A DNA stretch of 64,000 nt from Betaproteobacteria bacterium (lineage in GTDB: Bacteria; Pseudomonadota; Gammaproteobacteria; Burkholderiales; SG8-41): positions 81,377 through 145,376 of the forward strand of contig JAKFYK010000025.1 in the NCBI GenBank assembly GCA_021730905.1. The letters are read 5' to 3'. How positions within the stretch are numbered: position 1 is the first letter of the stretch; the number at the start of each line of letters is the position of its first letter. Below, in pieces: positions 9,632 to 61,781 of the stretch. A model generated the notes under the pieces. That model saw only the letters and a list, made by a program, of their open reading frames with translations. It searched no databases and was not told where the DNA came from. A program made the translations under genes and the position numbers.

Positions 9632-11693
<2,062 letters not shown>

Positions 11694-46499: not shown

Positions 46500-47672
46500 A
46501 TGAGGAGATTTATGTTCTCAGGATTGCTGGACCTGCCGTGGTGGGGTTACCTACTTGCCACGCTGGGATTGACCCACATCACCATCGCTGCGGTGACGAT
46601 TTATCTGCACCGCCATTCCGCACATCGCGCGCTGGACCTGCATCCTATTGTCAGTCATTTCTTCCGCTTCTGGCTGTGGGCGACCACCGGCATGACCACT
46701 AAAGCCTGGACCGCCATTCACCGCAAGCACCACGCTAAATGCGAAACCGTTGAAGACCCGCATAGCCCGCAGATCTTCGGCATTCGCAAATTGCTGCTGG
46801 AAGGCGCGGAACTCTACCGCGTCGAAGGCGCTAACAAGGAAACGCTGGAACACTACGGCCACGGCACGCCTGACGACTGGCTGGAAAAACATGTCTACGG
46901 CAAACACGACCGTATCGGCATCGGCTCGATGCTGATCGTGGATGTCATTCTGTTCGGCCCGATCGGCATCACTATCTGGGCGGTGCAAATGATGTGGATA
47001 CCGTTTCTTGCTGCCGGTGTCATCAACGGCATCGGCCACTGGTGGGGCTACCGTAATTTCCAGTCCGAGGACGCCAGCACCAACGTGGTTCCGTGGGGCA
47101 TCCTGATCGGCGGCGAAGAACTGCATAACAACCATCATGCTTACGCCACCTCGGCAAAGCTTTCCAATCGCTGGTACGAGTTTGATATCGGCTGGATGTA
47201 CATCCGCATTCTAGAGACGCTAGGCCTGGCCACGGTGAAAAAAATCGCGCCGAAGGTAAAACTCGTCGCCAAGACGCAATGCGATTCGGACACCTTGCAG
47301 GCCGTGATCACCCACCGCTACGACGTGGTGACACGTTATGCGCGCTCGTTGCGCGACACCTGTGCTGCCGAGATGCAGGCGTTGAAGGCGCGTGCCGTCA
47401 GCGTGGACAGCGCGCGGTTGCGGCGCTGGCTCCACATCGATGCTGCCGCGCTGCCCGAGAAGGAACTCGCGGAGCGTGCGCAAGTGATCAGCCAGAGCAA
47501 TGTGCTTTCGACGGTATACACCATGCGCGACGAACTCGCCGGCGTATGGCAGCGCTCCACTGCCAGCAAGGAACAGTTGGTGCACAAGCTCGAAGACTGG
47601 TGCCGTCGCGCCGAGCACAGCGGCATCGTGCCGCTGCAGGAATTTTCGAAGCGCTTACGCTGCTACGCGTGA
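46500..47672 (+). CDS. membrane fatty-acid (acyl-CoA/lipid delta-9-type) desaturase
   Basis: Three His boxes: HRHSAH, HRKHH and HNNHH. Confidence 0.85.
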   Translation: MRRFMFSGLLDLPWWGYLLATLGLTHITIAAVTIYLHRHSAHRALDLHPIVSHFFRFWLWATTGMTTKAWTAIHRKHHAKCETVEDPHSPQIFGIRKLLLEGAELYRVEGANKETLEHYGHGTPDDWLEKHVYGKHDRIGIGSMLIVDVILFGPIGITIWAVQMMWIPFLAAGVINGIGHWWGYRNFQSEDASTNVVPWGILIGGEELHNNHHAYATSAKLSNRWYEFDIGWMYIRILETLGLATVKKIAPKVKLVAKTQCDSDTLQAVITHRYDVVTRYARSLRDTCAAEMQALKARAVSVDSARLRRWLHIDAAALPEKELAERAQVISQSNVLSTVYTMRDELAGVWQRSTASKEQLVHKLEDWCRRAEHSGIVPLQEFSKRLRCYA

Positions 47673-50922: not shown

Positions 50923-52212
50923 CTAGGCCACCTTGATCTTGAACCCTCCCGCATACACCGCGGGATTCCTGCCGTCCCACACCACGCCGTCGATCAGCTT
51001 TGACGAGCGCATCGGATCCTTGGGCACGCTCACCTTGACCTGAGACGCCGCCTCTTTGTAAAGGTCAATCTTGTTAATCTGCTTGGCCACCGCGAGGTAA
51101 TCCGGATCCTGCTTCATCAATCCCCAGCGCTTGTGCTGGGTGAGGAACCACATGCCGTCCGACAGGTACGGAAAGTTGACCGCGCCGTCGTTGAAAAATT
51201 TCATGTGGTCTTTATCGTCCCAGGTCTTGCCGAGGCCGTTTTGGTAACGGCCGAGGATGCGCTGGTTGATGACATCCACCGAAGTGTTCACGTAGGCGGT
51301 GTTCGATACCACTTCCGCCATTTTCGAGCGGTTGGACAACGACGCATCAATCCAGCGGCTGGCTTCCAGCACCGCCATAATCATGGCACGCGCGGTGTTG
51401 GGATATTTCTGCACAAACTCGTTGGTCGTCCCCAGCACTTTTTCCGGATGATCTTTCCATACCTCCTGCGAGGTGGCCGCCGTGATGCCTATGCCATCGG
51501 CAATGGCGCGGTGGTTCCAAGGCTCACCCACTGAAAAACCGTCCATGTTACCAATGCGCATGTTGGCCACCATTTGCGGTGGCGGCACGGTGATGATTTT
51601 CGCGTCGCGGAAGGGATTGATGCCGACGGAGGCCATCCAGTAGTACAGCCACATCGCGTGCGTGCCGGTGGGGAATGTTTGCGCAAAGGTGTACTCGCGC
51701 TTTTCTGTGGTCATCAACTTTGCAAGCGAGGGTCCATCAACCGCCCCCTTGTCGGCAAGCTTTTTCGACAGCGAAATCGCCTGTCCGTTATTGTTGATCG
51801 TCATCAGCACCGCCATGTCCTTGCGCGGTCCGCCGTTGCCCAGATGCACGCCGTAGATCAGCCCATAGAGGACGTGCGCGGCGTCCAGTTCGCCGTTCAC
51901 GACCTTGTCGCGCACGCCGGCCCACGACGATTCCTTGGTCGGAATGATCTTGATGCCGTACTTCTCGTCGAACTTGAGCACCGATGCCATCACCACCGAC
52001 GCGCAATCGGTCAGCGGTATGAAGCCGATCTTCACTTCCTTTTTCTCCGGGCCATCGGAGCCCGCGGCCCACGCGGCCTGACGCACACCCGGCGGCACCA
52101 GGCCCATGATGCCCGTCGCCGCAGCCTGTTTGAGAAACGCGCGCCGCGTGCCACGTCGCGCATCGGGCAGGACGGGTTTTCGGGTTTCATTGTTGCGCAT
52201 GCTGTTCTCCAC
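50923..52212 (-). CDS. Tat-signal NrtA/CmpA-like nitrate/nitrite-binding protein, without cognate permease/ATPase genes
   Basis: RRGTRRAFLKQAAATG (twin-arginine) followed by KIGFIPLTDCASVVMA and FAQTFPTGTHAMWLYYW, NrtA-type motifs. The next gene downstream is convergent dut. Confidence 0.8.
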   Translation of the reverse strand: MENSMRNNETRKPVLPDARRGTRRAFLKQAAATGIMGLVPPGVRQAAWAAGSDGPEKKEVKIGFIPLTDCASVVMASVLKFDEKYGIKIIPTKESSWAGVRDKVVNGELDAAHVLYGLIYGVHLGNGGPRKDMAVLMTINNNGQAISLSKKLADKGAVDGPSLAKLMTTEKREYTFAQTFPTGTHAMWLYYWMASVGINPFRDAKIITVPPPQMVANMRIGNMDGFSVGEPWNHRAIADGIGITAATSQEVWKDHPEKVLGTTNEFVQKYPNTARAMIMAVLEASRWIDASLSNRSKMAEVVSNTAYVNTSVDVINQRILGRYQNGLGKTWDDKDHMKFFNDGAVNFPYLSDGMWFLTQHKRWGLMKQDPDYLAVAKQINKIDLYKEAASQVKVSVPKDPMRSSKLIDGVVWDGRNPAVYAGGFKIKVA

Positions 52213-52510: not shown

Positions 52511-53116
52511 TTATGCCGAGCGGAAGCGCGGCACACCGCCGAACATCGGCCGCCAACTGACTGCGACCGCGTACACCGCGCCCAGCCACAGCAGCAGCAT
52601 CCCTGTGCGCTGCTGGTCGTCGGCGAGATAGGCGAGACACAAGCGTTCGTCCGCCGCGAGGTATCCCCATCCGAAGCGCAGCAGCGTGGCGATCACTTCC
52701 AAGTGGACCACCGCGCGCGCGATCACCGGCAGCCGCGGCCACGATAACGCCACCGCGAGACCCGCAGCAGGCACCGACAGAAACTTGATTGCATCAACCG
52801 TAGTATCAAGCCGGGCGAGATCGAGCAGCCGGGGCAACATCCACAACACCATCACAAAACTCGCCGCAATAAGCCCGGAGATACCTCCCGCGTTAAGCAA
52901 TTGGGCATGCTTCAACACGCGCCCTGCGGCCATATCCGGCGCTGAGCGCAGCCATGCCCTGCCCACTGCGTAGCCGGTCAGCGCCAGCAGCGGCAACTGC
53001 ACCAGCATGTGCAACGCCATGCTGCTTTCCATCCACGAGCGCGTTGCGGGTGCGGCCAAAACCAACCAGCCACTCGCGATCCACAACAAGCACCGCCAAG
53101 GTTCAACGTGTTGCAT
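52511..53116 (-). CDS. CtaG(caa3-type)-like membrane protein (possible oxidase assembly factor; 'orf1' of sNOR-type clusters)
   Basis: Start at MQHVEPW (overlaps the SCO gene end by 14 nt). About six helices; MALHMLVQLPLLALTGYAVG is CtaG-like as I recall it. Confidence 0.5.
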   Translation of the reverse strand: MQHVEPWRCLLWIASGWLVLAAPATRSWMESSMALHMLVQLPLLALTGYAVGRAWLRSAPDMAAGRVLKHAQLLNAGGISGLIAASFVMVLWMLPRLLDLARLDTTVDAIKFLSVPAAGLAVALSWPRLPVIARAVVHLEVIATLLRFGWGYLAADERLCLAYLADDQQRTGMLLLWLGAVYAVAVSWRPMFGGVPRFRSA

Positions 53117-53744
53117 TATCGGGTTTCGTCCTGGCGAGTATTCCACGCACCGTGTCCACCACTCTTCCTCCATCCTGCAGGTCGTGAATCGCGACCAGCC
53201 TGCGATCCGGCCCGACCACATGCACCGCCGCGTTATGTGCATAGCCGCCGAGCCCGTCGGGAATCACCACCACGCCGAATGCCGACAGCCAGCGCTGCAT
53301 GTCCGCGCCGGATGCCGGACGCCCGAGTTCCCAGCCCGCCGCGTCTGCGCTGTAGCGTGCACGATAGGCCCGCAGCTGCGCCGGGCCGTCGTGTTCCGGA
53401 TCGAAAGTCACCGACAGCAGGCGCACTTTTCCGGCCGCAATCTCCGCAGCAAGGCGCTGACCGAGCTGCACGTACACCGAACCCAGCGCCCCACAAACCG
53501 TCGGGCAACGGGTGTAAACAAAATCCACCAGCAGCACCTGTCCCGGCAACCCGGCCAACCCGCTACGACCGCCATCCGCAAGGTCAAGCGGCAAGTCCGG
53601 AACCGCAGCCGGCGCACGCAGCGCCTGGAGCCGGCGCGCCGACTCCAGCGTGTACGCCTCGAAGCCGTCGGTTATGCTGTGCGCGACCGCGAGACCCGCG
53701 GCGAACACCAGCGCAGCAGCGACTGCGGTGCGCTTCGCGCTCAC
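53103..53744 (-). CDS. SCO/SenC-family copper chaperone
   Basis: GTG start in a GTGA overlap with the upstream stop. Membrane anchor, LVDFVYTRCPTVCGALG (CxxxC) and distal His (YAHNAAVHVV). Confidence 0.8.
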   Translation of the reverse strand: MSAKRTAVAAALVFAAGLAVAHSITDGFEAYTLESARRLQALRAPAAVPDLPLDLADGGRSGLAGLPGQVLLVDFVYTRCPTVCGALGSVYVQLGQRLAAEIAAGKVRLLSVTFDPEHDGPAQLRAYRARYSADAAGWELGRPASGADMQRWLSAFGVVVIPDGLGGYAHNAAVHVVGPDRRLVAIHDLQDGGRVVDTVRGILARTKPDNATR

Positions 53745-55195
53745 GCCGAAAGCGATACGCGCGGCAACCGTGCAAGCAAACGCACGCACAGCACGACCGC
53801 CGCAACCAGCAGCAGGGCCGCAGCCAGCGTGCCGACCTGCGCGTAGCCCAGCCACGGCGCATCGTGCACGGCAAAGCGCCGCGGCACGCCCTGCCAGCCG
53901 GCCGCGAGAAACACCAGGCAGAACACGGCACCCGCGACGCCATAGGTCCAGAACGACGCACGATCGAGCGCAGTCTCGCGCCAGTCACTGCGCGTGCACA
54001 CGTAGAGCATGGTTCCCAGCAGCATCGGCACCAGGCCAAGCAGCAAATAGAAATGGAAGTGTCCCGGCACCCACTGCGTGTTATGCATGACCAGATTGAC
54101 GCGCACCATGCCGTCGATGATCGCCGGGATCACGCCCGCCACCCATCCGAACAACGAAAAGATCATGAGTCGCAGTGGCAAGTCCCACTTCAGCCCCGAG
54201 CGATGGATGTTGACTAGCGCACCATAAGCCGTCACCAGCAGCACCGGGATGCCGCTCAGATACGACAGCACCTGGCCCATCACCATCATCCACTTCGGCA
54301 TCACGTAATCCATCAGCAGGTGATGCGGATAGACCGCCATCACGATCAGCGTCACCGCCGCCCACGACGCCAGGAACGGCCGGCTGATCAGCCACGGCCG
54401 CCCGGTGTAGCGCGGCACAATTTCGTAAACGCCGATCACTGCCATGTAAATCGTGGCATTGATGAACACATGGCCGAAGAAAAAGATCAGGTTCTTCATC
54501 AGCAGCGCATCGAACACCACGCCCGGCACATAGATGTTGATCAAACTCATCACCAGCACCACCGCGCCGGCGAGGATGCCGAGGATGTTGATGATCACCA
54601 CCATGGTGCTCGCCACCACCGTCGGCGGCAAAGAAGTATCGACTGGCCCGGAACCGAACAACTGGTTGAGGCCCAACGCTTTGGCAAGACTGCCATAGCG
54701 GCGCAGGAGGGCCAGCGCACAATCGAGATAAAACAACAGGAAACCGACGCCGATGAACACCAGTCCGCCGACGAAAGCGCCGGCGGCGTGCGGCCCCCAC
54801 ACGCCCATGCTCTTAGCCGGCAGAGGGTACAAAAACGTCCAGCCGCCCGCGAAACGACCGATGCCAATCGCGGCCAGTATCATCACCACGCCGATCAGCG
54901 AGAGCACGAGCATGGTGAGGAACATTCCGGTAGAAAGCTTGACGTAGCGGCGCAGGAAGTACCACATGACCGCGGCACCGGCGAGGCCGGAAACACCGAC
55001 CATGCCCGCGCCGTGCAACGTCATGATCTCATAGACGAAATTGGGTGGAATCGGCAGCCAGGTGGCCTGCGCGCCGCGAAATACCGCGCCGGCAATCATC
55101 ATCAGCATGTATACCGCGATGCCGATGGCGACATAAAGCTGAAACGCTAATTTGGCGGAAGGCGTGTCGGCGGAGGGTGTGACGGATGTGTTCAT
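53741..55195 (-). CDS. haem-copper oxidase superfamily subunit I (sNOR-like; Asn at the cross-linked Tyr position)
   Basis: 12+ helices. His ligands H61 (TLHGAG), H242 (FFFGHVFIN), H291/H292 (YPHHLL) and H379/H381 (GHFHF). Residue 246 is Asn where A/B-type enzymes have GHPEVY. Confidence 0.85.
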   Translation of the reverse strand: MNTSVTPSADTPSAKLAFQLYVAIGIAVYMLMMIAGAVFRGAQATWLPIPPNFVYEIMTLHGAGMVGVSGLAGAAVMWYFLRRYVKLSTGMFLTMLVLSLIGVVMILAAIGIGRFAGGWTFLYPLPAKSMGVWGPHAAGAFVGGLVFIGVGFLLFYLDCALALLRRYGSLAKALGLNQLFGSGPVDTSLPPTVVASTMVVIINILGILAGAVVLVMSLINIYVPGVVFDALLMKNLIFFFGHVFINATIYMAVIGVYEIVPRYTGRPWLISRPFLASWAAVTLIVMAVYPHHLLMDYVMPKWMMVMGQVLSYLSGIPVLLVTAYGALVNIHRSGLKWDLPLRLMIFSLFGWVAGVIPAIIDGMVRVNLVMHNTQWVPGHFHFYLLLGLVPMLLGTMLYVCTRSDWRETALDRASFWTYGVAGAVFCLVFLAAGWQGVPRRFAVHDAPWLGYAQVGTLAAALLLVAAVVLCVRLLARLPRVSLSA

Positions 55196-55208
55196 GATGG
55201 TTCTCCCC

Positions 55209-55739
55209 TTACGATCCGGCGCGGACTTTGATTACCGTGCGCATGGCGTGATGCGCAGCGCCGCAGTATTCGAGGCACAGCACTTCGTATTCGCCTGGTT
55301 CAGTAAAGCGCACCTGCAGCTTGTTGACGTAGCCGGGCATGGCCTGGGCTTGCGCTATCATCTCGGTCTTGTTTTTGTAGATCGCAAAGCCGTGGTTCAC
55401 GTCGGATGCGGTGAGTTCAAACTCCACCAGCTTGCCGACGGGTACCGTGTCCTTGTCGAGTTCCCAGCGCCATTGATGACCAACGGCACGTATGGTCACG
55501 TCGGGTTTGGCGCCTGACGCCGCGTGTCCTGCAATTGGCCAGTCCCACAAGGTCGCGAATGACAGCACAATGCCGGCGACAATCGCCAGCCAGAACAAAC
55601 GACCGCGCCATTGATACGCGGTCTTGGCCATGGCGCCGGCCTCGCCACCCGTGCGGCTTGCGCCGGCGACGACCCACAGAAACACGGCGGCGACTACCGC
55701 CATCAAGATCAGACTTGATACCCACGCAAGACTTTGCAT
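55209..55739 (-). CDS. haem-copper oxidase subunit II with complete CuA site
   Basis: Two N-terminal helices, cupredoxin DVNHGF and CLEYCGAAHHAM (C-x-E-x-C-G-x2-H-x2-M). Confidence 0.8.
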   Translation of the reverse strand: MQSLAWVSSLILMAVVAAVFLWVVAGASRTGGEAGAMAKTAYQWRGRLFWLAIVAGIVLSFATLWDWPIAGHAASGAKPDVTIRAVGHQWRWELDKDTVPVGKLVEFELTASDVNHGFAIYKNKTEMIAQAQAMPGYVNKLQVRFTEPGEYEVLCLEYCGAAHHAMRTVIKVRAGS

Positions 55740-55772: not shown

Positions 55773-56162
55773 CTATTTGACGATAGCCGCCATATAGTCA
55801 ACCGCCGCCTTGACCTGGTCGTCGGTAAGTTTGTCATTGCCGCCACGCGGCGGCATTTGCGTACCCTTGGGACCGGTAAGCCCGCCGAGCGCGCTCTTGT
55901 ATAAAGCGTCCTTCCCTTTCGCCAGTCGCGGCGCCCACGCTGATTTGTTCGTAACCAGCGGCGCGCCGGCGACGTCGTTGGCATGACAGGCTTCGCAGGT
56001 TCCCAACCAGATCGTGCGTCCCTGCTTCAGACGCGCATCGGGAAACTCCGGAAATTTCTGCGCGCTTGCCGGCGTCGCAGCTAGTGAGGCAAAAACAGCC
56101 GCTGCCGCAAGCGCTCCCGCGGGGAGCGCCGCACGCAGCAGTCCTTCCATGTAACGGTTCAC
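55773..56162 (-). CDS. cytochrome c5-family monohaem cytochrome
   Basis: Signal peptide, GTCEACHANDVAGAP, and the axial-Met region GTQMPPRGGNDKLTDDQVKAAVDYM. Confidence 0.8.
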   Translation of the reverse strand: MNRYMEGLLRAALPAGALAAAAVFASLAATPASAQKFPEFPDARLKQGRTIWLGTCEACHANDVAGAPLVTNKSAWAPRLAKGKDALYKSALGGLTGPKGTQMPPRGGNDKLTDDQVKAAVDYMAAIVK

Positions 56163-56169
56163 GTTGCAC

Positions 56170-56733
56170 CTACTTCATCGGAATGCGTATCACCACGCCG
56201 CCCATGGTTTGCCCCAGTTTAAAGTCCTTTTTCGGGGTGTCCTTGTGGTCGTTGTGGCAGCTCACGCACGCAGGTGCGATCGCCTTGTCGGCATAGATCG
56301 CAGTGAAGTACTTGGTTTTACCGAGGGTTTCCTCGCCATAGAACGGTTTGGTGTTGTCCTTGGCGACCGCATCGAGACCCTTTTTTTCCAGCGCTGTCTT
56401 TGGCAAATTCTGCTTGTTGATCGGCCATAGCGACTGCAGCGAATAGCTGAACGGCATTTTCTTTTCCGCCACCATCTCCGCGCCGAAGCGGAACATCTGC
56501 GCCGGCAGCGGTAGTGACTTATCGTCCTTGAAGTGCTCGGTGGCCTTGATCACCTTCTCTTCATTCTGCAGGCGATTGACCACCATGCGCGTGTACACCG
56601 TGCGGTCGGCTTCCATCACCGCATGCATTGCGTCTGCCATTTCCTTGTAACTCACCTGGGCATGTGCGCCTGTTGCCGCTGCAAATCCCGCCATCGCCAG
56701 TGCTGTTACTACTGTTTTCCTCGTCGTCATCAT
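56170..56733 (-). CDS. periplasmic DUF3365/Tll0287-like protein with one CxxCH haem site
   Basis: Start at MMTTRKTV after AAGGAG. Signal peptide, then C-terminal APACVSCHNDHKD. Domain name is from memory. Confidence 0.6.
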   Translation of the reverse strand: MMTTRKTVVTALAMAGFAAATGAHAQVSYKEMADAMHAVMEADRTVYTRMVVNRLQNEEKVIKATEHFKDDKSLPLPAQMFRFGAEMVAEKKMPFSYSLQSLWPINKQNLPKTALEKKGLDAVAKDNTKPFYGEETLGKTKYFTAIYADKAIAPACVSCHNDHKDTPKKDFKLGQTMGGVVIRIPMK

Positions 56734-56779
56734 ATGCTCCTTTTCAAGTTGAATCACATCCGCTGTCGCGGAATTTCGG

Positions 56780-58219
56780 TCACTTCTTTCCCGTAGCAGC
56801 GTTCCCTTGCTGCCGCTTTTCATCTGCCTCTTTCACCCGCTGCGCAACCATCTCCAGACTCTTGATGTGCACCCCCGGCTTGCCGGCAAAGTTGTTCGCC
56901 ACCAGCTTGCGGTCGGCCAGCGCATCGGTGGCAAAACCGAGTCCGTGGCAATTCATGCATACCGGCCGCAGCATCTTTTCGCTGGGACGCAGGTTGTCGT
57001 TCTGGTTGTGCTGCACCAGCACGCGCTTGGCATCGAGATCCCGCACGCGATATTCGTCGCGCGGCAGATGACAACTGGCACAGGACACGCCGCTTCCGGC
57101 TGGCGCTTCTCCCGCCAGTTCCTTTTTCCACAGTGCGTAATGCGGCGAACGTTGATAGGCAATCGTGTGGTCGTCGCGATGACAGCCGGCGCAGGCTTCC
57201 ACCGCCGCTTTTTTTGTATCGAAGCGGTGTGCGCTGTGACAGGTGGTGCAGGTCAGTTCCGTGCTGCGCGCCTTCGTGTGCATGGGCTGGCGCGCGCGGC
57301 CCGGCGTCATCGGTGAAAGTCCTTCTGCGACACGCATGCCGTGCTTGCCGGCAAGAAATCCCTTGGTTTCCGGTTCGTGGCAGGTCGCGCACACCTTCTG
57401 GTCGGGGCGCTGCACCCAGCCCTTTGCACCCTCCTTTTCATCCTGATGACAGCCGCTGCAATTGACGCCCGAGCGTGCATGCGAAGTTGCCAGCCAGTCG
57501 TTAACTGTTTCCTGCGATTTCATGAGATGCGCCGGCGCGTCAGGCTTGGTCTGCGGCTTGAGCGGAAAACGGTCCGAGGGATAGCCGGGGAAATCGGCAG
57601 CGACCGCACGGAAGTTGCGTCCCGGCAACGAAGCGCGTCCCAGCAGGTCCGGCTCGTTCATATGCTTGGCCAGAAAATCCTCATAGAGCGCGCGATTGTC
57701 ATGAAATTTATGACAGCCGGCGGAGTTGCAGGTATCGAACGCCATGCCGACGTGGCTGGGTCGATCCTTGCTGATGTCCTGATGGCAGTGAAAACAAAAA
57801 TCGCCGGCCAGCGTGACGCCCATGGTCTTGGTGATTTCGGGACGATGTTCGATGTGGCAAGTGACACACAAAGTGGCGTCGAGTTTTTCCGCCAGTTCGG
57901 CGTTGCGCGGATCGGTGAATTTGCTGCGTGGATGCTTGTCCACCGCATCCTTCAGTTCCTGTCCATGGCAGCGCTCGCAGGCTTCCTGAATTTTCTCGCG
58001 GCCGCTAAATGCGCTGACGTGGCAACTCTCACAGGCGAGTTCGATCTGGTAGTGGCCGTGACTGGTTTTCCCGGGGAGAAACATCGAGCGCGCAGGCGTC
58101 AGCAGCGGATTGCTGGCCGCGCTTTTCATCAACAATCCCGCCGCGAGATATCCGCTGACCGCCATGCTCAGCACCCCCCACCAGATCCAGAAGATCTTTC
58201 GCCGCGCCGGTTTTGCCAT
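56780..58219 (-). CDS. membrane-anchored multihaem cytochrome c (10 CxxCH + 1 CxxxxCH)
   Basis: N-terminal helix IFWIWWGVLSMAVSGYLAAGLL. Haem motifs: CESCH, CERCH, CVTCH, CFHCH, CNSAGCH, CSGCH, CATCH, CTTCH, CAGCH, CASCH and CMNCH. Confidence 0.85.
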   Translation of the reverse strand: MAKPARRKIFWIWWGVLSMAVSGYLAAGLLMKSAASNPLLTPARSMFLPGKTSHGHYQIELACESCHVSAFSGREKIQEACERCHGQELKDAVDKHPRSKFTDPRNAELAEKLDATLCVTCHIEHRPEITKTMGVTLAGDFCFHCHQDISKDRPSHVGMAFDTCNSAGCHKFHDNRALYEDFLAKHMNEPDLLGRASLPGRNFRAVAADFPGYPSDRFPLKPQTKPDAPAHLMKSQETVNDWLATSHARSGVNCSGCHQDEKEGAKGWVQRPDQKVCATCHEPETKGFLAGKHGMRVAEGLSPMTPGRARQPMHTKARSTELTCTTCHSAHRFDTKKAAVEACAGCHRDDHTIAYQRSPHYALWKKELAGEAPAGSGVSCASCHLPRDEYRVRDLDAKRVLVQHNQNDNLRPSEKMLRPVCMNCHGLGFATDALADRKLVANNFAGKPGVHIKSLEMVAQRVKEADEKRQQGNAATGKK

Positions 58220-58231
58220 ACGAATCCCGGC

Positions 58232-60289
58232 TCAGAAGTAGTAGGTCTTGAGCACATGGAACGCGAGCAATACCGGTATCGGCCAGGCGATCAGGATGTG
58301 CGACCACAACCAGGTACGGCGTAGCCGCGCAGCACCGGCGCCCAACCGATGTTCCAGCGCAATCACGCCGCCAGCGACGGCGCCCAGCGCCACTACACCG
58401 AGAAATGACGCCATCAGCAGGAGATTCAGATTGGCCCCCAGTCGCCCGCCGGTGTGCACGGCAATACCCGCCACCGTCAACACGCCCAGCACCGCATGCG
58501 CAACGCGCCACACCGGAAAATCCCCCAGTGTGAATCGCCGTATGCGTTTTCGCAGCGACATGACGGAAAGCAGTACGGCCAAACCCAGCACCGTAAAGCC
58601 GCTCACCTGTTTCCAGAAGCTTTCGCGCCACAACATGTCCCATTGCCACGGCACCTGTACCGTGGCGGCATACGGTACGGCGACCAGCAGGACCAGCAGC
58701 GCCGTAGGCAACGCCAGCCCGCCGGCACCGAGCAAAGTTTTCCAGCCGCGCGCAGGCTCGGCGGGAGTACTCGCGCCCACCAGTTCCGTCAGCAACGGCC
58801 GGCACGACCCGCATACAGTGGAAGCGCCGGTACGAGCGGCCAGCGTTTCGACCGTGACACAACCTTCGTTCAATGCGCGCCCCAAGTCACCGCGCGTGAC
58901 GCCAGTACAGTTGCACACCGCCGTAGCTGCGGGCCACGCCACCACGCTGCCCAGTTCCTCTTCCGGCCATAGTGATCCTGTACGAATAAATCGCCACAGT
59001 TGCCACGGCCACACGTTGCGCTGGCGCATCGCTGCTTCCTGCAAGCGGCTGAGGTCGGGACATTCCCCCACAGCAACAGCGCCAATCAGGCGTCCGCGCA
59101 AGGTCACCAGCTTGCGGTACGTCGGTCCGTCGCGGTACGTCCAGGTGCGGGCAAAGTCAGGCGTTTCCTCCTCGGTAACCGGCCCCATGCTGAACACTGG
59201 CAGATCGACCACTTTCAGGCGCGTGGCAATCGTCGACCCGTTGTAGCGCGCGCGGCCGCCAGCAATAACATGCGCCGCCACCGTAGCCTGCTCCAGCCCC
59301 GGCGCCACAATGCCGTAAACGCGCTTGCGATGTTCAACACATTCCCCAACCGCATAGATATCTAGATCGGAGGTCTGCAAACTGTCGTTCACGCGTATGC
59401 CGCGCCCGATCGGCAGACCCGCCGCCAGTGCAAGTTCAGTGTTAGGTAATATGCCGGTAGCGACGATCAGCGTGTCACACTCCATGATCAGATCGCTGCG
59501 CAACTGTATGCCGGTTACCCGCACATCGCCGAGCACCTGCTTCACGCCGTCGCCCATCACCACCTTGATGCCCAGCGCTTCCACGTGAGTAAGCAGGTCC
59601 CTGGACGCCGCAACGTCGAGTTGACGCATCATCAGCCGGCTGTAATGTTCGACCACGCAAACTTCCGTGTTGAAACGCTGCATCGCGCGCGCCGCTTCCA
59701 GTCCCAGCAGGCCGCCGCCCAGCACCACGGTGCGGCGGCTGCGTACGCGGCGCGCAAGCAACTGATGCGCATCGCGCACATCGCGGAAGGTATAGACCCC
59801 GGGCAGGCGAATCCCCGGAAGATCGGGCACGTACGGACGCGAACCGGTGGCCAGCACCACCCTGGAATAGGGCTGCACAAAACCCAGGGCGTCGCGCACG
59901 CAGCGATTCTCGCGGTCTATGGCGGTGACGCGGCAACCGAAACGCCTGTCGATGTTTGCCTCTGGCGGCAACACCAGGTCGCGCGTCAATGCCTGCCAAT
60001 TCGCTTCACCGACCAGAAACGACGACAGGCGTACGCGGTTGTATGGCTCCGACGCCTCTTCGCCATACAGTACAACCCGCGTCGCCGGACTGCGGCGGTA
60101 CAATTCCTGCGCAACGCGAATACCCACGGGACCAGCGCCGATGATGACTATCGGCGCGTTGTCGTCACCGCGCTGCGCTTGCAATGACAGTACCGGTTGA
60201 GTTGCCGTTGCCAAAGTCAATCCTAAAAAAAAGCGCCCATGGCCGCCGTCACTGTCTGCGGAAATGGACGCCGTTGCCCCTTGCTTCAT
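58232..60289 (-). CDS. NirB-N-terminal-like FAD/NAD(P) oxidoreductase + BFD-type [2Fe-2S] domain fused to a C-terminal five-helix membrane domain with two H-x13-H pairs
   Basis: Start set at ATG 60289 (AGGA RBS); the ORF extends to TTG 60355. IVIIGAGPVG and TVVLGGGLLG Rossmann motifs. CNCTGV...CGSCRP. Helices with VAHAVLGVLTVAGIAVH and WSHILIAWPIPVLLAFH. Confidence 0.8.
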   Translation of the reverse strand: MKQGATASISADSDGGHGRFFLGLTLATATQPVLSLQAQRGDDNAPIVIIGAGPVGIRVAQELYRRSPATRVVLYGEEASEPYNRVRLSSFLVGEANWQALTRDLVLPPEANIDRRFGCRVTAIDRENRCVRDALGFVQPYSRVVLATGSRPYVPDLPGIRLPGVYTFRDVRDAHQLLARRVRSRRTVVLGGGLLGLEAARAMQRFNTEVCVVEHYSRLMMRQLDVAASRDLLTHVEALGIKVVMGDGVKQVLGDVRVTGIQLRSDLIMECDTLIVATGILPNTELALAAGLPIGRGIRVNDSLQTSDLDIYAVGECVEHRKRVYGIVAPGLEQATVAAHVIAGGRARYNGSTIATRLKVVDLPVFSMGPVTEEETPDFARTWTYRDGPTYRKLVTLRGRLIGAVAVGECPDLSRLQEAAMRQRNVWPWQLWRFIRTGSLWPEEELGSVVAWPAATAVCNCTGVTRGDLGRALNEGCVTVETLAARTGASTVCGSCRPLLTELVGASTPAEPARGWKTLLGAGGLALPTALLVLLVAVPYAATVQVPWQWDMLWRESFWKQVSGFTVLGLAVLLSVMSLRKRIRRFTLGDFPVWRVAHAVLGVLTVAGIAVHTGGRLGANLNLLLMASFLGVVALGAVAGGVIALEHRLGAGAARLRRTWLWSHILIAWPIPVLLAFHVLKTYYF

Positions 60290-60384
60290 CGATCCTAGCC
60301 AACACTGGCCTTCGCGCGCTCCAAACAAGCGCGCTTTCACACTGTGGTTCAGCAACCTCTATGCCAATCACTGAGGATATATAT

Positions 60385-60524: not shown

Positions 60525-61100
60525 CTATCCAAGCAATCTGGAAACCGCGATGACCTGTTCGGCCACCGTACCCATCGACGCACTGCGATCCATCGCCAGT
60601 TTGCGCAGCGCATGGTAGGCCTGCGCTTCGGACATTTTTCGGCCCGTCATCAATATGCCCTTGGCACGCTCCACCAGCTTGCGTTCGGACAGCTTGCTGC
60701 GGGTTTGCGCGAGTTCCGTTTGCACCGACTGGAATGCTTCGAACCGCGCGTGCGCGGCTTCGATAATGGGCTCAATACGCTCCGCGGCAAGCCCATCCAC
60801 GACGTAGGCGGTGACCCCCGCGCGCACGGCCTGACGTATGGATTCGCGCTTGGCATCTTGCGTGAACATGACGATGGGCCGCGGGCAGCTTTCGGTGATC
60901 ATGCACAAATGCTCCAGCGTGTCGCGGCTGGGCGACGCCGTATCGACGATGATGGTATCAGGCGCGTGCTGATTCACCGCGTCGTACAGTTTTCGCGGAT
61001 TGGACACTTCCGCGACGACTTCGTAGCCCAAGCGCTCAAGCATCAGCCGCAAGCCCAAAGACCGTTCCGCGGATTCATCGACCAGCATGATGCGTAACAT
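60525..61100 (-). CDS. nasT: ANTAR-domain response regulator (NasT/AmiR-like antiterminator)
   Basis: Receiver domain (IMLVDES...IIVDTASP) plus ANTAR (LSERKLVERAKGILMTGRKMSEAQAYHALRKLAMD). Confidence 0.85.
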   Translation of the reverse strand: MLRIMLVDESAERSLGLRLMLERLGYEVVAEVSNPRKLYDAVNQHAPDTIIVDTASPSRDTLEHLCMITESCPRPIVMFTQDAKRESIRQAVRAGVTAYVVDGLAAERIEPIIEAAHARFEAFQSVQTELAQTRSKLSERKLVERAKGILMTGRKMSEAQAYHALRKLAMDRSASMGTVAEQVIAVSRLLG

Positions 61101-61399: not shown

Positions 61400-61415
61400 C
61401 AAGTATTTGTTTTTA
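61400..61415 (-). repeat. 16-nt AT-rich box, copy 10 (TAAAAACAAATACTTG on minus)
   Basis: Overlaps the nirD stop codon. Confidence 0.75.
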
Positions 61416-61781
61416 TTTATTAATATGTATATTCACCAAAACCATGCCCCCTTCAACACGCGTCGGGAATACCGCGATACGCACGTCCGCCTCTTCGAGG
61501 CACTGACCGCTGGCAAGGCTGAAATGTTGCTTGTACACGGGGGAAGCAATGACGCATTCGCCCTTCAAATCGCCAACGATGCCGCGGGACAACACGTTCG
61601 CCCGCGAGAAAGGATCGTGATTGTCGATGGCATAAACACTGTCGTCATGGAGGCGGAACACCGCGACCTGACGTCCATCCACCAGCGCACACACGCCGGT
61701 GTCGGGCACGATGTCGGTGAGTTTGCACACCGCGACCCACTCTTGCCCAATGTCCATTTGGACCTTCGGACGCGCACTCAT
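61413..61781 (-). CDS. nirD: nitrite reductase [NAD(P)H] small subunit
   Basis: WVAVCKLTDIVPDTGVCALVDGRQVAVFRL...ASPVYKQHFSLASGQC is Rieske-like NirD. Confidence 0.9.
   Translation of the reverse strand: MSARPKVQMDIGQEWVAVCKLTDIVPDTGVCALVDGRQVAVFRLHDDSVYAIDNHDPFSRANVLSRGIVGDLKGECVIASPVYKQHFSLASGQCLEEADVRIAVFPTRVEGGMVLVNIHINK

Follow-up and report, generated by a model that had tools for sequence, protein, structure and literature searches.

What does a protein do that begins like an assimilatory nitrite reductase and ends in the membrane? This question is raised by a gene on the minus strand of contig JAKFYK010000025.1 of a Betaproteobacteria bacterium (assembly GCA_021730905.1), in a stretch of 64,000 nucleotides that we refer to as the window. 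The open reading frame (ORF), 58232..60289, encodes 685 amino acids (aa) from ATG 60289, and the residue numbers used here (H598, C459, E214 and so on) are counted from that ATG. An initial annotation described the product as a NirB-type dehydrogenase half joined to a bis-His dihaem membrane domain that feeds a periplasmic cytochrome. At the level of sequence this description is supported by the invariance of the His residues, the topology, the similarity to haem-b families (below threshold throughout), the fusions and the gene linkage. The best explanation that we can offer is an NADH dehydrogenase that crosses the membrane as one polypeptide and exports electrons, perhaps for the detoxification of nitric oxide (NO), and we put its probability at roughly 0.6. 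The coordinates of all features are collected in Table 1.

Flavin and [2Fe-2S] modules

The N-terminal part of the protein matched Pyr_redox_2 (residues 47-338, E 1e-51) and Pyr_redox in Pfam, and residues 355-419 matched the Rubredoxin_C dimerisation domain. The two GxGxxG Rossmann motifs of the initial annotation were found as GAGPVG (residues 51-56) and GGGLLG (residues 191-196), and the proposed Cys cluster, C459-N-C461...C493-G-S-C496, lies in a Fer2_BFD domain. When the full-length model was searched by Foldseek, the top matches were BphA4, putidaredoxin reductase and rubredoxin reductase (E ~7e-30 to ~1e-29), with a TM-score normalised by target length (TMt) of 0.84-0.86 and a root-mean-square deviation of ~2.8 Å across ~400 residues; this is the three-domain FAD/NAD/C-terminal fold of the BphA4/putidaredoxin-reductase type, and the search recovered ferredoxin reductases only. 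In 96 close homologues (identity 59-88%) the four Cys, both Rossmann motifs and the four His of the membrane domain are invariant or nearly so, and this conservation is far above chance. Since Glu214, which closes the second Rossmann strand, is also invariant, the sequence suggests that NADH is the preferred donor.

The order of these domains is that of the N-terminal half of NirB, as had been claimed, and the two proteins share the FAD/NADH plus BFD [2Fe-2S] module, the operon context and the predicted NasT control. The alignment to the NirB encoded in the window showed 35% identity and stopped exactly after the BFD domain, and the NirB model TIGR02374 of NCBIfam was matched at profile positions 1-470 of 794 only (354 bits; cutoff 578). 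No NIR_SIR_ferr or NIR_SIR sirohaem-[4Fe-4S] domain was found in the protein by the Pfam scan. In contrast to NirB, the window protein wholly lacks the sirohaem/[4Fe-4S] catalytic half, and it therefore cannot be a nitrite reductase, despite its automatic annotation. In the databases its relatives go by ‘NAD(P)/FAD-dependent oxidoreductase’ or by the incorrect name ‘nitrite reductase large subunit’, and hundreds of proteins that carry ‘nitrite reductase (NADH) large subunit’ without the catalytic half call for correction.

A five-helix membrane domain with two His pairs

A linker of ~10 residues leads from the BFD domain to the first transmembrane helix (TM1). Hydropathy and both AlphaFold2 models agreed on five helices (517-539, 564-579, 596-613, 623-645 and 661-680), where about five had been anticipated, and the model of the domain alone had a mean predicted local distance difference test score (pLDDT) of 87 and a predicted TM-score of 0.81. 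The two His pairs, each with 13 residues between its members, are present as described and sit on TM3 (AHAVLGVLTVAGIAVH, H598/H612) and TM5 (SHILIAWPIPVLLAFH, H664/H678). The i/i+14 spacing corresponds to ~21 Å along a helix, and His residues so spaced on alternate helices are the pattern of cytochrome b and of NOX. The four His are invariant not only in the 96 close homologues but also in 10 sequences of 38-45% identity that represent three domain architectures. Another conserved His, H647 (EHR), would make a fifth possible ligand, but it was rejected because distant variants do not conserve it.

The sidedness was assessed by the positive-inside rule. The loop between TM2 and TM3 (RKRIRRF...) contains six Lys/Arg and the loop between TM4 and TM5 contains four. 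As these loops would be cytoplasmic, the flavin/Fe-S part is placed in the cytoplasm and the C-terminus in the periplasm (N-in/C-out). H598 and H664 are then predicted near the inner face and H612 and H678 near the outer face, each pair spanning the membrane. Apart from the His residues, the best-conserved motifs (WQWDxLWR..KQxSG, HTGxRxG, WPxP and a C-terminal K..YY) lie on the predicted periplasmic face, and are candidates for haem-propionate contacts or for a docking surface.

Neither Pfam nor NCBIfam had a match at or above threshold for residues ~515-685, and a match to Ferric_reduct (PF01794) was absent from the window protein even when E values as high as 10 were admitted. When 37 family members were scanned singly against Pfam, DUF4405 was matched by 17 of the 37 (counted at E <1), with a best E of 6e-5 and with the best relative at 25.7 bits against the cutoff of 26.7. 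DUF4079 was matched by five members (best E 0.015), Ferric_reduct by three (0.0035), Ni_hydr_CYTB by two (0.071) and PepSY_TM by one (0.049). The DUF4405 match of the relative P0328 (23.9 bits) covered profile positions 10-65 of 66 and fell on TM2-TM3. Four of the families among these weak matches, DUF4405, Ferric_reduct, Ni_hydr_CYTB and PepSY_TM, are haem-b membrane families. The initial annotation had pointed to haem-b families, and similarity to DUF4405, Ferric_reduct, cytochrome b561 and PepSY_TM was consistent in profile comparisons, though all of it was sub-threshold.

Binding of haem b has been shown for one DUF4405 protein, whose model, in common with MsrQ and PepSY proteins, has four central His (PMC11334425). 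The window domain has four conserved intramembrane His, at paired depths according to the topology, and five helices rather than the six of the published DUF4405 architecture (PMC11334425). As in ferric reductases, where 12-13 residues separate the members of a pair, its two His pairs are on TM3 and TM5, here with 13 residues between. By all of these sequence criteria the domain appears to behave as a dihaem cytochrome b, and it cannot be assigned to DUF4405 or to the FRD superfamily.

Distribution and domain architectures

When 1.84 billion representatives were searched exhaustively with a profile, 662 proteins matched at E <=1e-3, 543 of them at E <=1e-10. The membrane domain was C-terminal in all 150 among the matches listed (of 662). 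A BFD domain was present in 10/10 relatives scanned, and a Pyr_redox_2 or FNR-like flavin domain in 9/9 of those longer than a BFD+TM fragment. Most full-length members are ~660 aa long and have the architecture of the window protein. In other members the order is EF-hand, BFD, FAD_binding_6, NAD_binding_1 and membrane domain, or two or three cyclic-nucleotide (cNMP)-binding domains, BFD, FNR-like domain and membrane domain. Myxococcota (Polyangium, Byssovorax; P0280, P0295, P0296, P0212) have Pyr_redox_2, BFD, a linker and the membrane domain. Since the membrane domain was always fused with a flavin/BFD module in the proteins scanned, and this with two unrelated flavin folds, its job would be to take electrons from such a module. 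The EF-hand or cNMP fusions (two or three cNMP domains) with BFD and an FNR-like domain were seen in the metagenomic proteins P0168, P0228, P0248 and P0301 and in locus L088 (8001-12595).

Stand-alone ‘BFD+TM’ or ‘TM-only’ proteins (P0347, P0349) were considered as split genes and rejected; they are frameshift fragments from long-read assemblies in which the neighbouring nirB is fragmented too. In the long-read metagenome contigs L083 and L084 the nirB gene and the flavo-TM gene are each broken into pieces by frameshifts, so that short ‘stand-alone’ homologues in the databases can be assembly artefacts. A scan of genome contigs with the pattern GGGLLGLEA, which is common to NirB, yielded only five full-length loci, and a word-indexed search with the short domain returned mainly fragments at contig ends; gene contexts were recovered by looking up the encoding contigs. 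Within the literature that could be searched, no description was found of the flavin-BFD-membrane fusion or of the gene trio described below.

The N-terminus of the protein

The initial annotation had also noted an N-terminal extension with a Tat-like stretch and a single Arg, from which the flavin domain might have been periplasmic. When 20 homologues were aligned, no conservation was seen over the first ~25-30 codons of the ORF, including ‘GHGRFFLGL’, and many homologues began ~20 residues ahead of the first Rossmann strand. The modal length of the homologues is 659-661 aa, and the AlphaFold pLDDT is <50 over ORF residues 1-41. The DNA that would code for ‘GHGRFFLGL’, GGCCAUGGGCGCUUUUUUUUAGGAUUG, corresponds to the 3' arm of a hairpin with a folding energy of -20.5 kcal/mol, together with its U8 tail. 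Given the lack of conservation, the modal length, the low pLDDT and the coincidence with a terminator hairpin, the extension is not protein but translated leader RNA, and a Tat signal with a periplasmic flavin domain was rejected.

Downstream of the hairpin tail are a Shine-Dalgarno sequence and, 6 nt further, TTG 60214. The true start is probably this TTG, with ATG 60289 lying inside the leader. A terminator just 5' of the start was also found in L082, L003, L001 and L085, and the gene was therefore taken as 58232..60214. The resulting 660-aa protein has no signal peptide.

An obligate 11-haem cytochrome partner

Gene order was compared in 14 loci, the window and L001-L004 and L080-L088. The multihaem cytochrome that had been placed 12 nt downstream does begin 12 nt past the stop codon, and an 11-haem cytochrome gene directly follows the membrane-protein gene in 14/14 loci, with gaps of -1 to 12 nt where measured. 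In seven orthologues of 43-76% identity every haem motif is invariant. These undecahaem cytochromes form a distinct conserved family with the invariant non-haem motifs VQHNQN, KMxRxxC, PSH and HxNxALY, and the protein might itself hold a catalytic site. Its similarity to NrfA and DmsE is weak or marginal only. Presumably it accepts electrons from the membrane domain.

A dihaem membrane subunit often works with a quinone site, and the protein could instead be a haem-containing NADH:quinone oxidoreductase, with a membrane part like NarI, FdnI or SdhC and with the multihaem cytochrome drawing on the quinol pool separately. The weak Ni_hydr_CYTB matches of two of the 37 family members agree with such an enzyme. 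However, the best-conserved surface of the domain is periplasmic (WQWDxLWR..KQxSG, HTGxRxG and the C-terminal K..YY), and the cytochrome c gene is tightly coupled in 14/14 loci, even after the flavin module has been swapped. Moreover, the cytochrome had only a marginal, off-register match to the NrfH quinol-dehydrogenase model (E 4e-4) and none to NapC/NirT. We therefore regard a quinone reductase as improbable.

The same cytochrome bears on the direction of electron flow. Multihaem cytochromes of the HAO/NrfA superfamily can act oxidatively, and the protein has its weak NrfA-like similarity, so that it might oxidise hydroxylamine or NO in the periplasm while the b haems pass electrons inwards to NAD(P)+ or to cytoplasmic acceptors. 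Against this, electrons would move against the membrane potential and the reduction of NAD+ (about -320 mV) would be uphill, and the HAO-type signature was not found in the cytochrome by Pfam, NCBIfam and a further search. Inward flow is very unlikely.

The third gene of the trio encodes a Tll0287-like haem-c protein and follows in 13/13 of the loci long enough to show it. Across phyla no partner is better conserved, its identity being 48-89%. Stand-alone sCache_haem proteins are reported to have redox roles and Cys/His ligation, Cys being the axial ligand in Tll0287 and in a P. putida protein (bioRxiv 10.64898/2026.02.01.703092). As the window protein has one CVSCH and no further Cys, its distal ligation differs from that of Tll0287. 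The undecahaem cytochrome and the Cys-less sCache_haem protein thus represent two further uncharacterised families, as obligate partners. In L088 the trio is kept, with a flavin module of the FNR type carrying cNMP domains and with no nas or other nitrogen genes nearby.

Terminal modules behind the trio

In the window, L081, L082, L086 and L087, the trio is followed by genes for a monohaem cytochrome c, COX2, COX1, SenC and a membrane ORF; the gene order of the haem-copper module in the window is that of norSY-senC-orf1. Subunit I without the cross-link Tyr, a CuA subunit II, and senC with a membrane ORF next to it, the features of the sNOR family (described in PMC11214002), were all found, and the haem-copper enzyme looks like an sNOR, here in the nas operon of a non-nitrifier. 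In L002, L003, L004, L080, L083, L084 and L085 the trio is followed instead by a gene for a single-domain globin without a signal peptide. Proteobacterial trios belong to nas operons with predicted σ54/NasT control and have one or other of these two modules behind them.

A cytoplasmic globin after the trio in seven loci would also fit a membrane-tethered cytoplasmic reductase like Flp of Bradyrhizobium, in which the membrane domain is an anchor or a redox/NO sensor. An anchor, however, needs neither four invariant intramembrane His nor a conserved periplasmic face, the trio is kept in L088 without globin, haem-copper enzyme or nas genes, and the sNOR-type loci have no globin. As an alternative to electron export we consider a tethered reductase to have little chance, and the two roles are not mutually exclusive.

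The genes around the module across the loci include nasT, nasS/nrtA(BC), cobA, nirBD and, once, nasA; an Rrf2 regulator was found in one locus. In the window, nirD and nirB of the assimilatory nitrite reductase lie upstream of the membrane-protein gene, and nirBD is linked also in L081, L085, L086 and L087. The cluster ends with a nitrate/nitrite-binding protein of the NMT1_2 family, beyond which housekeeping genes follow. This protein has a twin-arginine-like N-terminus (TRRAFLKQAAATG) and no nrtBC genes come after it; it may be a periplasmic NrtA or a NasS partner of NasT.

Regulation of the operon

The leader RNA of the gene contains two hairpins of the ANTAR type. Recognition by ANTAR proteins involves a hexaloop whose first base is A and whose fourth is G (PMC10783516). 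Both loops in the window are of this kind, the 3' arm of the second hairpin (P2) overlaps the 5' arm of an intrinsic terminator, and an ANTAR regulator is encoded close by, as the next gene upstream. A consensus terminator scanner called no terminator in the leader because the loop is longer than its 8-nt limit; folding reveals the hairpin. The P2/terminator design is repeated in L003 (~9838-9918), L001 and L085, and in L082 a strong terminator (-36.9 kcal/mol, z = -7.3) stands just before the start. The Rfam narK RNA motif scored 17.7 bits, below its threshold of 43.2. Beta- and gammaproteobacterial loci have almost the same sequence in this leader hairpin, GG(A/G)C-A(A/G)NGGC-GUCC.

The nasT gene adjoins the module also in L001, L003, L080, L082 and L085. 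A candidate σ54-type promoter element was found by eye upstream of the leader, and TGGCA(C/T)-N5-TTGCT recurs upstream of the homologous gene in L081, L082, L085, L086, L087 and L001, which suggests NtrC/σ54 control on top of NasT antitermination. Judged by its sequence, the operon is expected to behave like nas genes, with a response to nitrogen limitation and nitrate/nitrite. With a candidate σ54 promoter and a terminator presumably under NasT control, it would be made during the assimilation of nitrate or nitrite.

Proposed electron pathway

In the mechanism that we propose, the cytoplasmic ferredoxin-reductase-type FAD domain would oxidise NADH and reduce the [2Fe-2S] cluster of the fused BFD-type domain, which ~10 residues separate from the membrane. 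From there electrons would pass to an inner haem b ligated by His598 (TM3) and His664 (TM5), to an outer haem b ligated by His612 and His678, and on to the membrane-anchored 11-haem cytochrome c. This cytochrome would hand them to the Tll0287-like haem-c protein and, via the monohaem cytochrome c and CuA, to the sNOR-type enzyme. The role of the chain would be to power the removal of by-product NO independently of the quinone pool. The link to NO is drawn because the sNOR-like enzyme and the globin are both NO consumers, the control is of the nas type and there is a precedent in the narK-bjgb-flp-nasC genes of Bradyrhizobium.

The two parts of this reading are of different strength: from the sequence features above, a transmembrane electron conduit is rather probable, and NO detoxification as its purpose is plausible with the odds slightly against it. 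We infer the haem binding, the direction and partners of electron transfer, the preference for NADH, and NO as the final substrate.

Several points weigh against this explanation. The case for a conduit is built on sequence, models and gene context. The family signals of the membrane domain are a weakness, since they are sub-threshold: the window protein itself scored 13.8 bits (E 0.087) with DUF4405 (PF14358), for which the gathering threshold is 26.7, and phmmer and profile searches of PDB sequences gave zero matches to the membrane domain. A Foldseek search of the PDB with the domain model likewise gave nothing at E <=0.001, Foldseek being weak on small helical bundles; the best E was 0.85, STEAP1 was matched at E 3.7 (TM-score normalised by query length, TMq, 0.41) and cytochrome b of the bc1 complex at E 5.2. 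In the myxobacterial variants the BFD domain and the membrane domain are separated by 350-560 aa that are rich in Pro, Ser and Arg and apparently disordered, so that a rigid contact from [2Fe-2S] to haem is not universal. Outward movement of electrons dissipates the membrane potential and therefore has an energetic cost. The globin-type loci have no haem-copper enzyme in which the chain could end on the periplasmic side. Finally, the sNOR clusters of ammonia-oxidising bacteria (AOB) have been described without mention of such a module, which is therefore no general requirement of sNOR.

Relation to known systems

Among the closest known systems are the NOX, DUOX and FRE proteins (SpNOX and CsNOX5 in bacteria) of the ferric-reductase-domain superfamily, in which cytosolic NAD(P)H reduces a flavin and electrons cross the membrane over two stacked bis-His b haems to an acceptor. 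The His pairs are likewise on TM3 and TM5 with ~13 residues between, and EF-hand or cyclic-nucleotide domains, which recall NOX5/DUOX, occur in relatives of the window protein. The parts, however, are different. The flavin module is a two-Rossmann ferredoxin reductase of the Pyr_redox_2 family rather than FNR-like, there is an extra [2Fe-2S] centre, the dehydrogenase is N-terminal (the reversed order), there are five helices instead of six, and the acceptor would be a multihaem cytochrome c instead of O2 or Fe(III). The NOX architecture, a membrane domain followed by a C-terminal FNR-like dehydrogenase, was not found in the FNR-type relatives either, as their flavin module is also N-terminal.

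This similarity in logic, together with the EF-hand and cNMP variants that recall the regulation of NOX5/DUOX, raises the possibility that the protein is itself an oxidase, in which O2 would take up electrons at the outer haem and yield superoxide or peroxide, the cytochromes being accessory partners. The obligate adjacent 11-haem cytochrome offers a protein acceptor, however, and the nas/NO context gives no rationale for the production of reactive oxygen species, so that we give an oxidase of the NOX kind hardly any weight compared with electron export to the cytochrome.

The cytochromes b of the DUF4405, PepSY-like (FoxB) and MsrQ groups are small helical domains with four central His and two haems b that carry electrons outwards (PMC11334425), and DUF4405 is the only family with a recurrent sequence signal for the window membrane domain, all matches being below the gathering score. 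Whereas these proteins are stand-alone and work with separate reductases or flavinylated partners, the window protein has a fused reductase and Fe-S centre and an undecahaem partner. In Bradyrhizobium, the NasS/NasT-controlled narK-bjgb-flp-nasC genes include the NAD(P)H flavoprotein Flp and the globin Bjgb, which remove NO arising from nitrate assimilation (PMC4724949). An NAD(P)H flavoprotein in a nas operon is common to both systems, and a globin is present in seven related loci. The description of Flp/Bjgb includes neither a membrane domain nor periplasmic cytochromes (PMC4724949), and the window locus has an sNOR-type enzyme rather than a globin. The norSY-senC-orf1 clusters of AOB (PMC6967387, PMC11214002) share the gene order, the CuA subunit II and a subunit I without the active-site Tyr. 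They are reported with no mention of dedicated electron-input genes (PMC6967387, PMC11214002), whereas in the window four additional genes stand ahead of the module, those for the flavo-FeS-cytochrome b, for the 11-haem cytochrome c and for the Tll0287-like protein, and one for a further cytochrome c.

A flavocytochrome b that carries electrons across the membrane is a known principle (NOX/FRE, MsrQ/DUF4405). What is new is the set of parts and the way in which they are ordered, the extra Fe-S centre, the partner cytochromes and the setting among nas genes. If the proposed pathway is true, the scheme of NAD(P)H inside and electrons outside evolved twice, the second time with another flavin fold, an extra Fe-S centre, an unclassified membrane domain and the reversed order. 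It would provide a candidate electron donor for sNOR, whose physiological role as NO reductase or oxidase is debated (PMC6967387, PMC11214002), and would tie nitrate assimilation to periplasmic NO chemistry, extending the Flp/Bjgb paradigm of Bradyrhizobium.

A bolder reading is that the protein is the founding member of an unrecognised, widespread prokaryotic class of NOX-like exporters. The ~660 clusters at 50% identity may have in common a chain of flavin, [2Fe-2S] and dihaem b by which the quinone pool is avoided and a periplasmic machine of their own is driven. This machine, the 11-haem cytochrome c with the haem-c Cache protein, may be a new enzyme system that transforms NO or N-oxides. 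In proteobacteria it may be the physiological electron input to sNOR; elsewhere Ca2+ (EF-hand) or cyclic nucleotides may gate the exporter, in a bacterial counterpart of NOX5/DUOX regulation made from unrelated parts. That the new class, the new periplasmic machine, the sNOR input and the gating all hold together is less likely than not, and we offer the combination tentatively.

Features of the window

Table 1. Coordinates of the features of the membrane-protein locus within the window
Feature	Coordinates	Strand	Evidence or remarks
Flavo-[2Fe-2S]-dihaem (predicted) membrane protein gene	58232..60214	-	660 aa from TTG 60214; ORF, homologue N-termini and length, Shine-Dalgarno sequence, pLDDT
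FAD/NADH ferredoxin-reductase-type module, cytoplasmic	59033..60151	-	Pfam, NCBIfam, Foldseek, invariant columns
BFD-like [2Fe-2S] domain	58778..58918	-	Fer2_BFD, residues 458-504, E 8e-11 (Pfam)
Cys codons	Cys459 58913-5; Cys461 58907-9; Cys493 58811-3; Cys496 58802-4		
C-terminal five-helix membrane domain, predicted dihaem cytochrome b	58235..58744	-	Residues 516-685; hydropathy, Lys/Arg counts, AlphaFold2, invariance
His codons	H598 58496-8; H664 58298-300; H612 58454-6; H678 58256-8		
Shine-Dalgarno sequence	60224-60221		AGGA, 6 nt 5' of TTG 60214
Leader RNA	60225..60310	-	Sequence; fold -20.5 kcal/mol
Hexaloop hairpin P1	60310-60297	-	GGCC-AGUGUU-GGCU; ANTAR-type
Hexaloop hairpin P2	60279-60266	-	GGGC-AACGGC-GUCC; ANTAR-type
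Intrinsic terminator	Arms 60272-60264, 60240-60232; U8 60232-60225	-	GGCGUCCAU...AUGGGCGC, then U8
σ54-type -24/-12 promoter element (candidate)	60351..60366	-	TGGCATAGAGGTTGCT, TGGCAT-N5-TTGCT; found by eye, consensus only
NasT-like response regulator with ANTAR domain	60525..61100	-	ANTAR E 1e-18, Response_reg (Pfam); next gene upstream
nirD	61413-61781	-	Upstream of the membrane-protein gene; assimilatory nitrite reductase
nirB	61778 to window end (64000)	-	Upstream of the membrane-protein gene
Membrane-anchored periplasmic undecahaem cytochrome c	56780..58219	-	10 CxxCH + 1 CX4CH (motif count)
Tll0287-like (DUF3365/sCache_haem) periplasmic haem-c protein	56170..56823	-	Pfam E 2e-19
Monohaem class-I cytochrome c	55773..56162	-	Pfam Cytochrome_CBB3, Cytochrom_C; in most loci
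sNOR-like haem-copper module	52511..55739	-	Pfam COX1, COX2, SCO1-SenC; sequence; gene order
CuA subunit II	55209-55739	-	CLEYCGAAHHAM
Haem-copper subunit I	53741-55195	-	GHVFIN instead of GHPxVY, at the site of the His-Tyr cross-link motif of oxygen reductases; cross-link Tyr missing
SCO1/SenC	53103-53855	-	
Membrane ORF after senC	52511-53242	-	
NMT1_2 nitrate/nitrite-binding protein, NasS/NrtA family	50923..52212	-	Pfam E 2e-100; cluster end

Away from this cluster, one ORF on the plus strand (46500-47672) combines the N-terminal part of a fatty-acid desaturase with the C-terminal part of an ISL3 transposase, suggesting an insertion-sequence junction or a disrupted gene.

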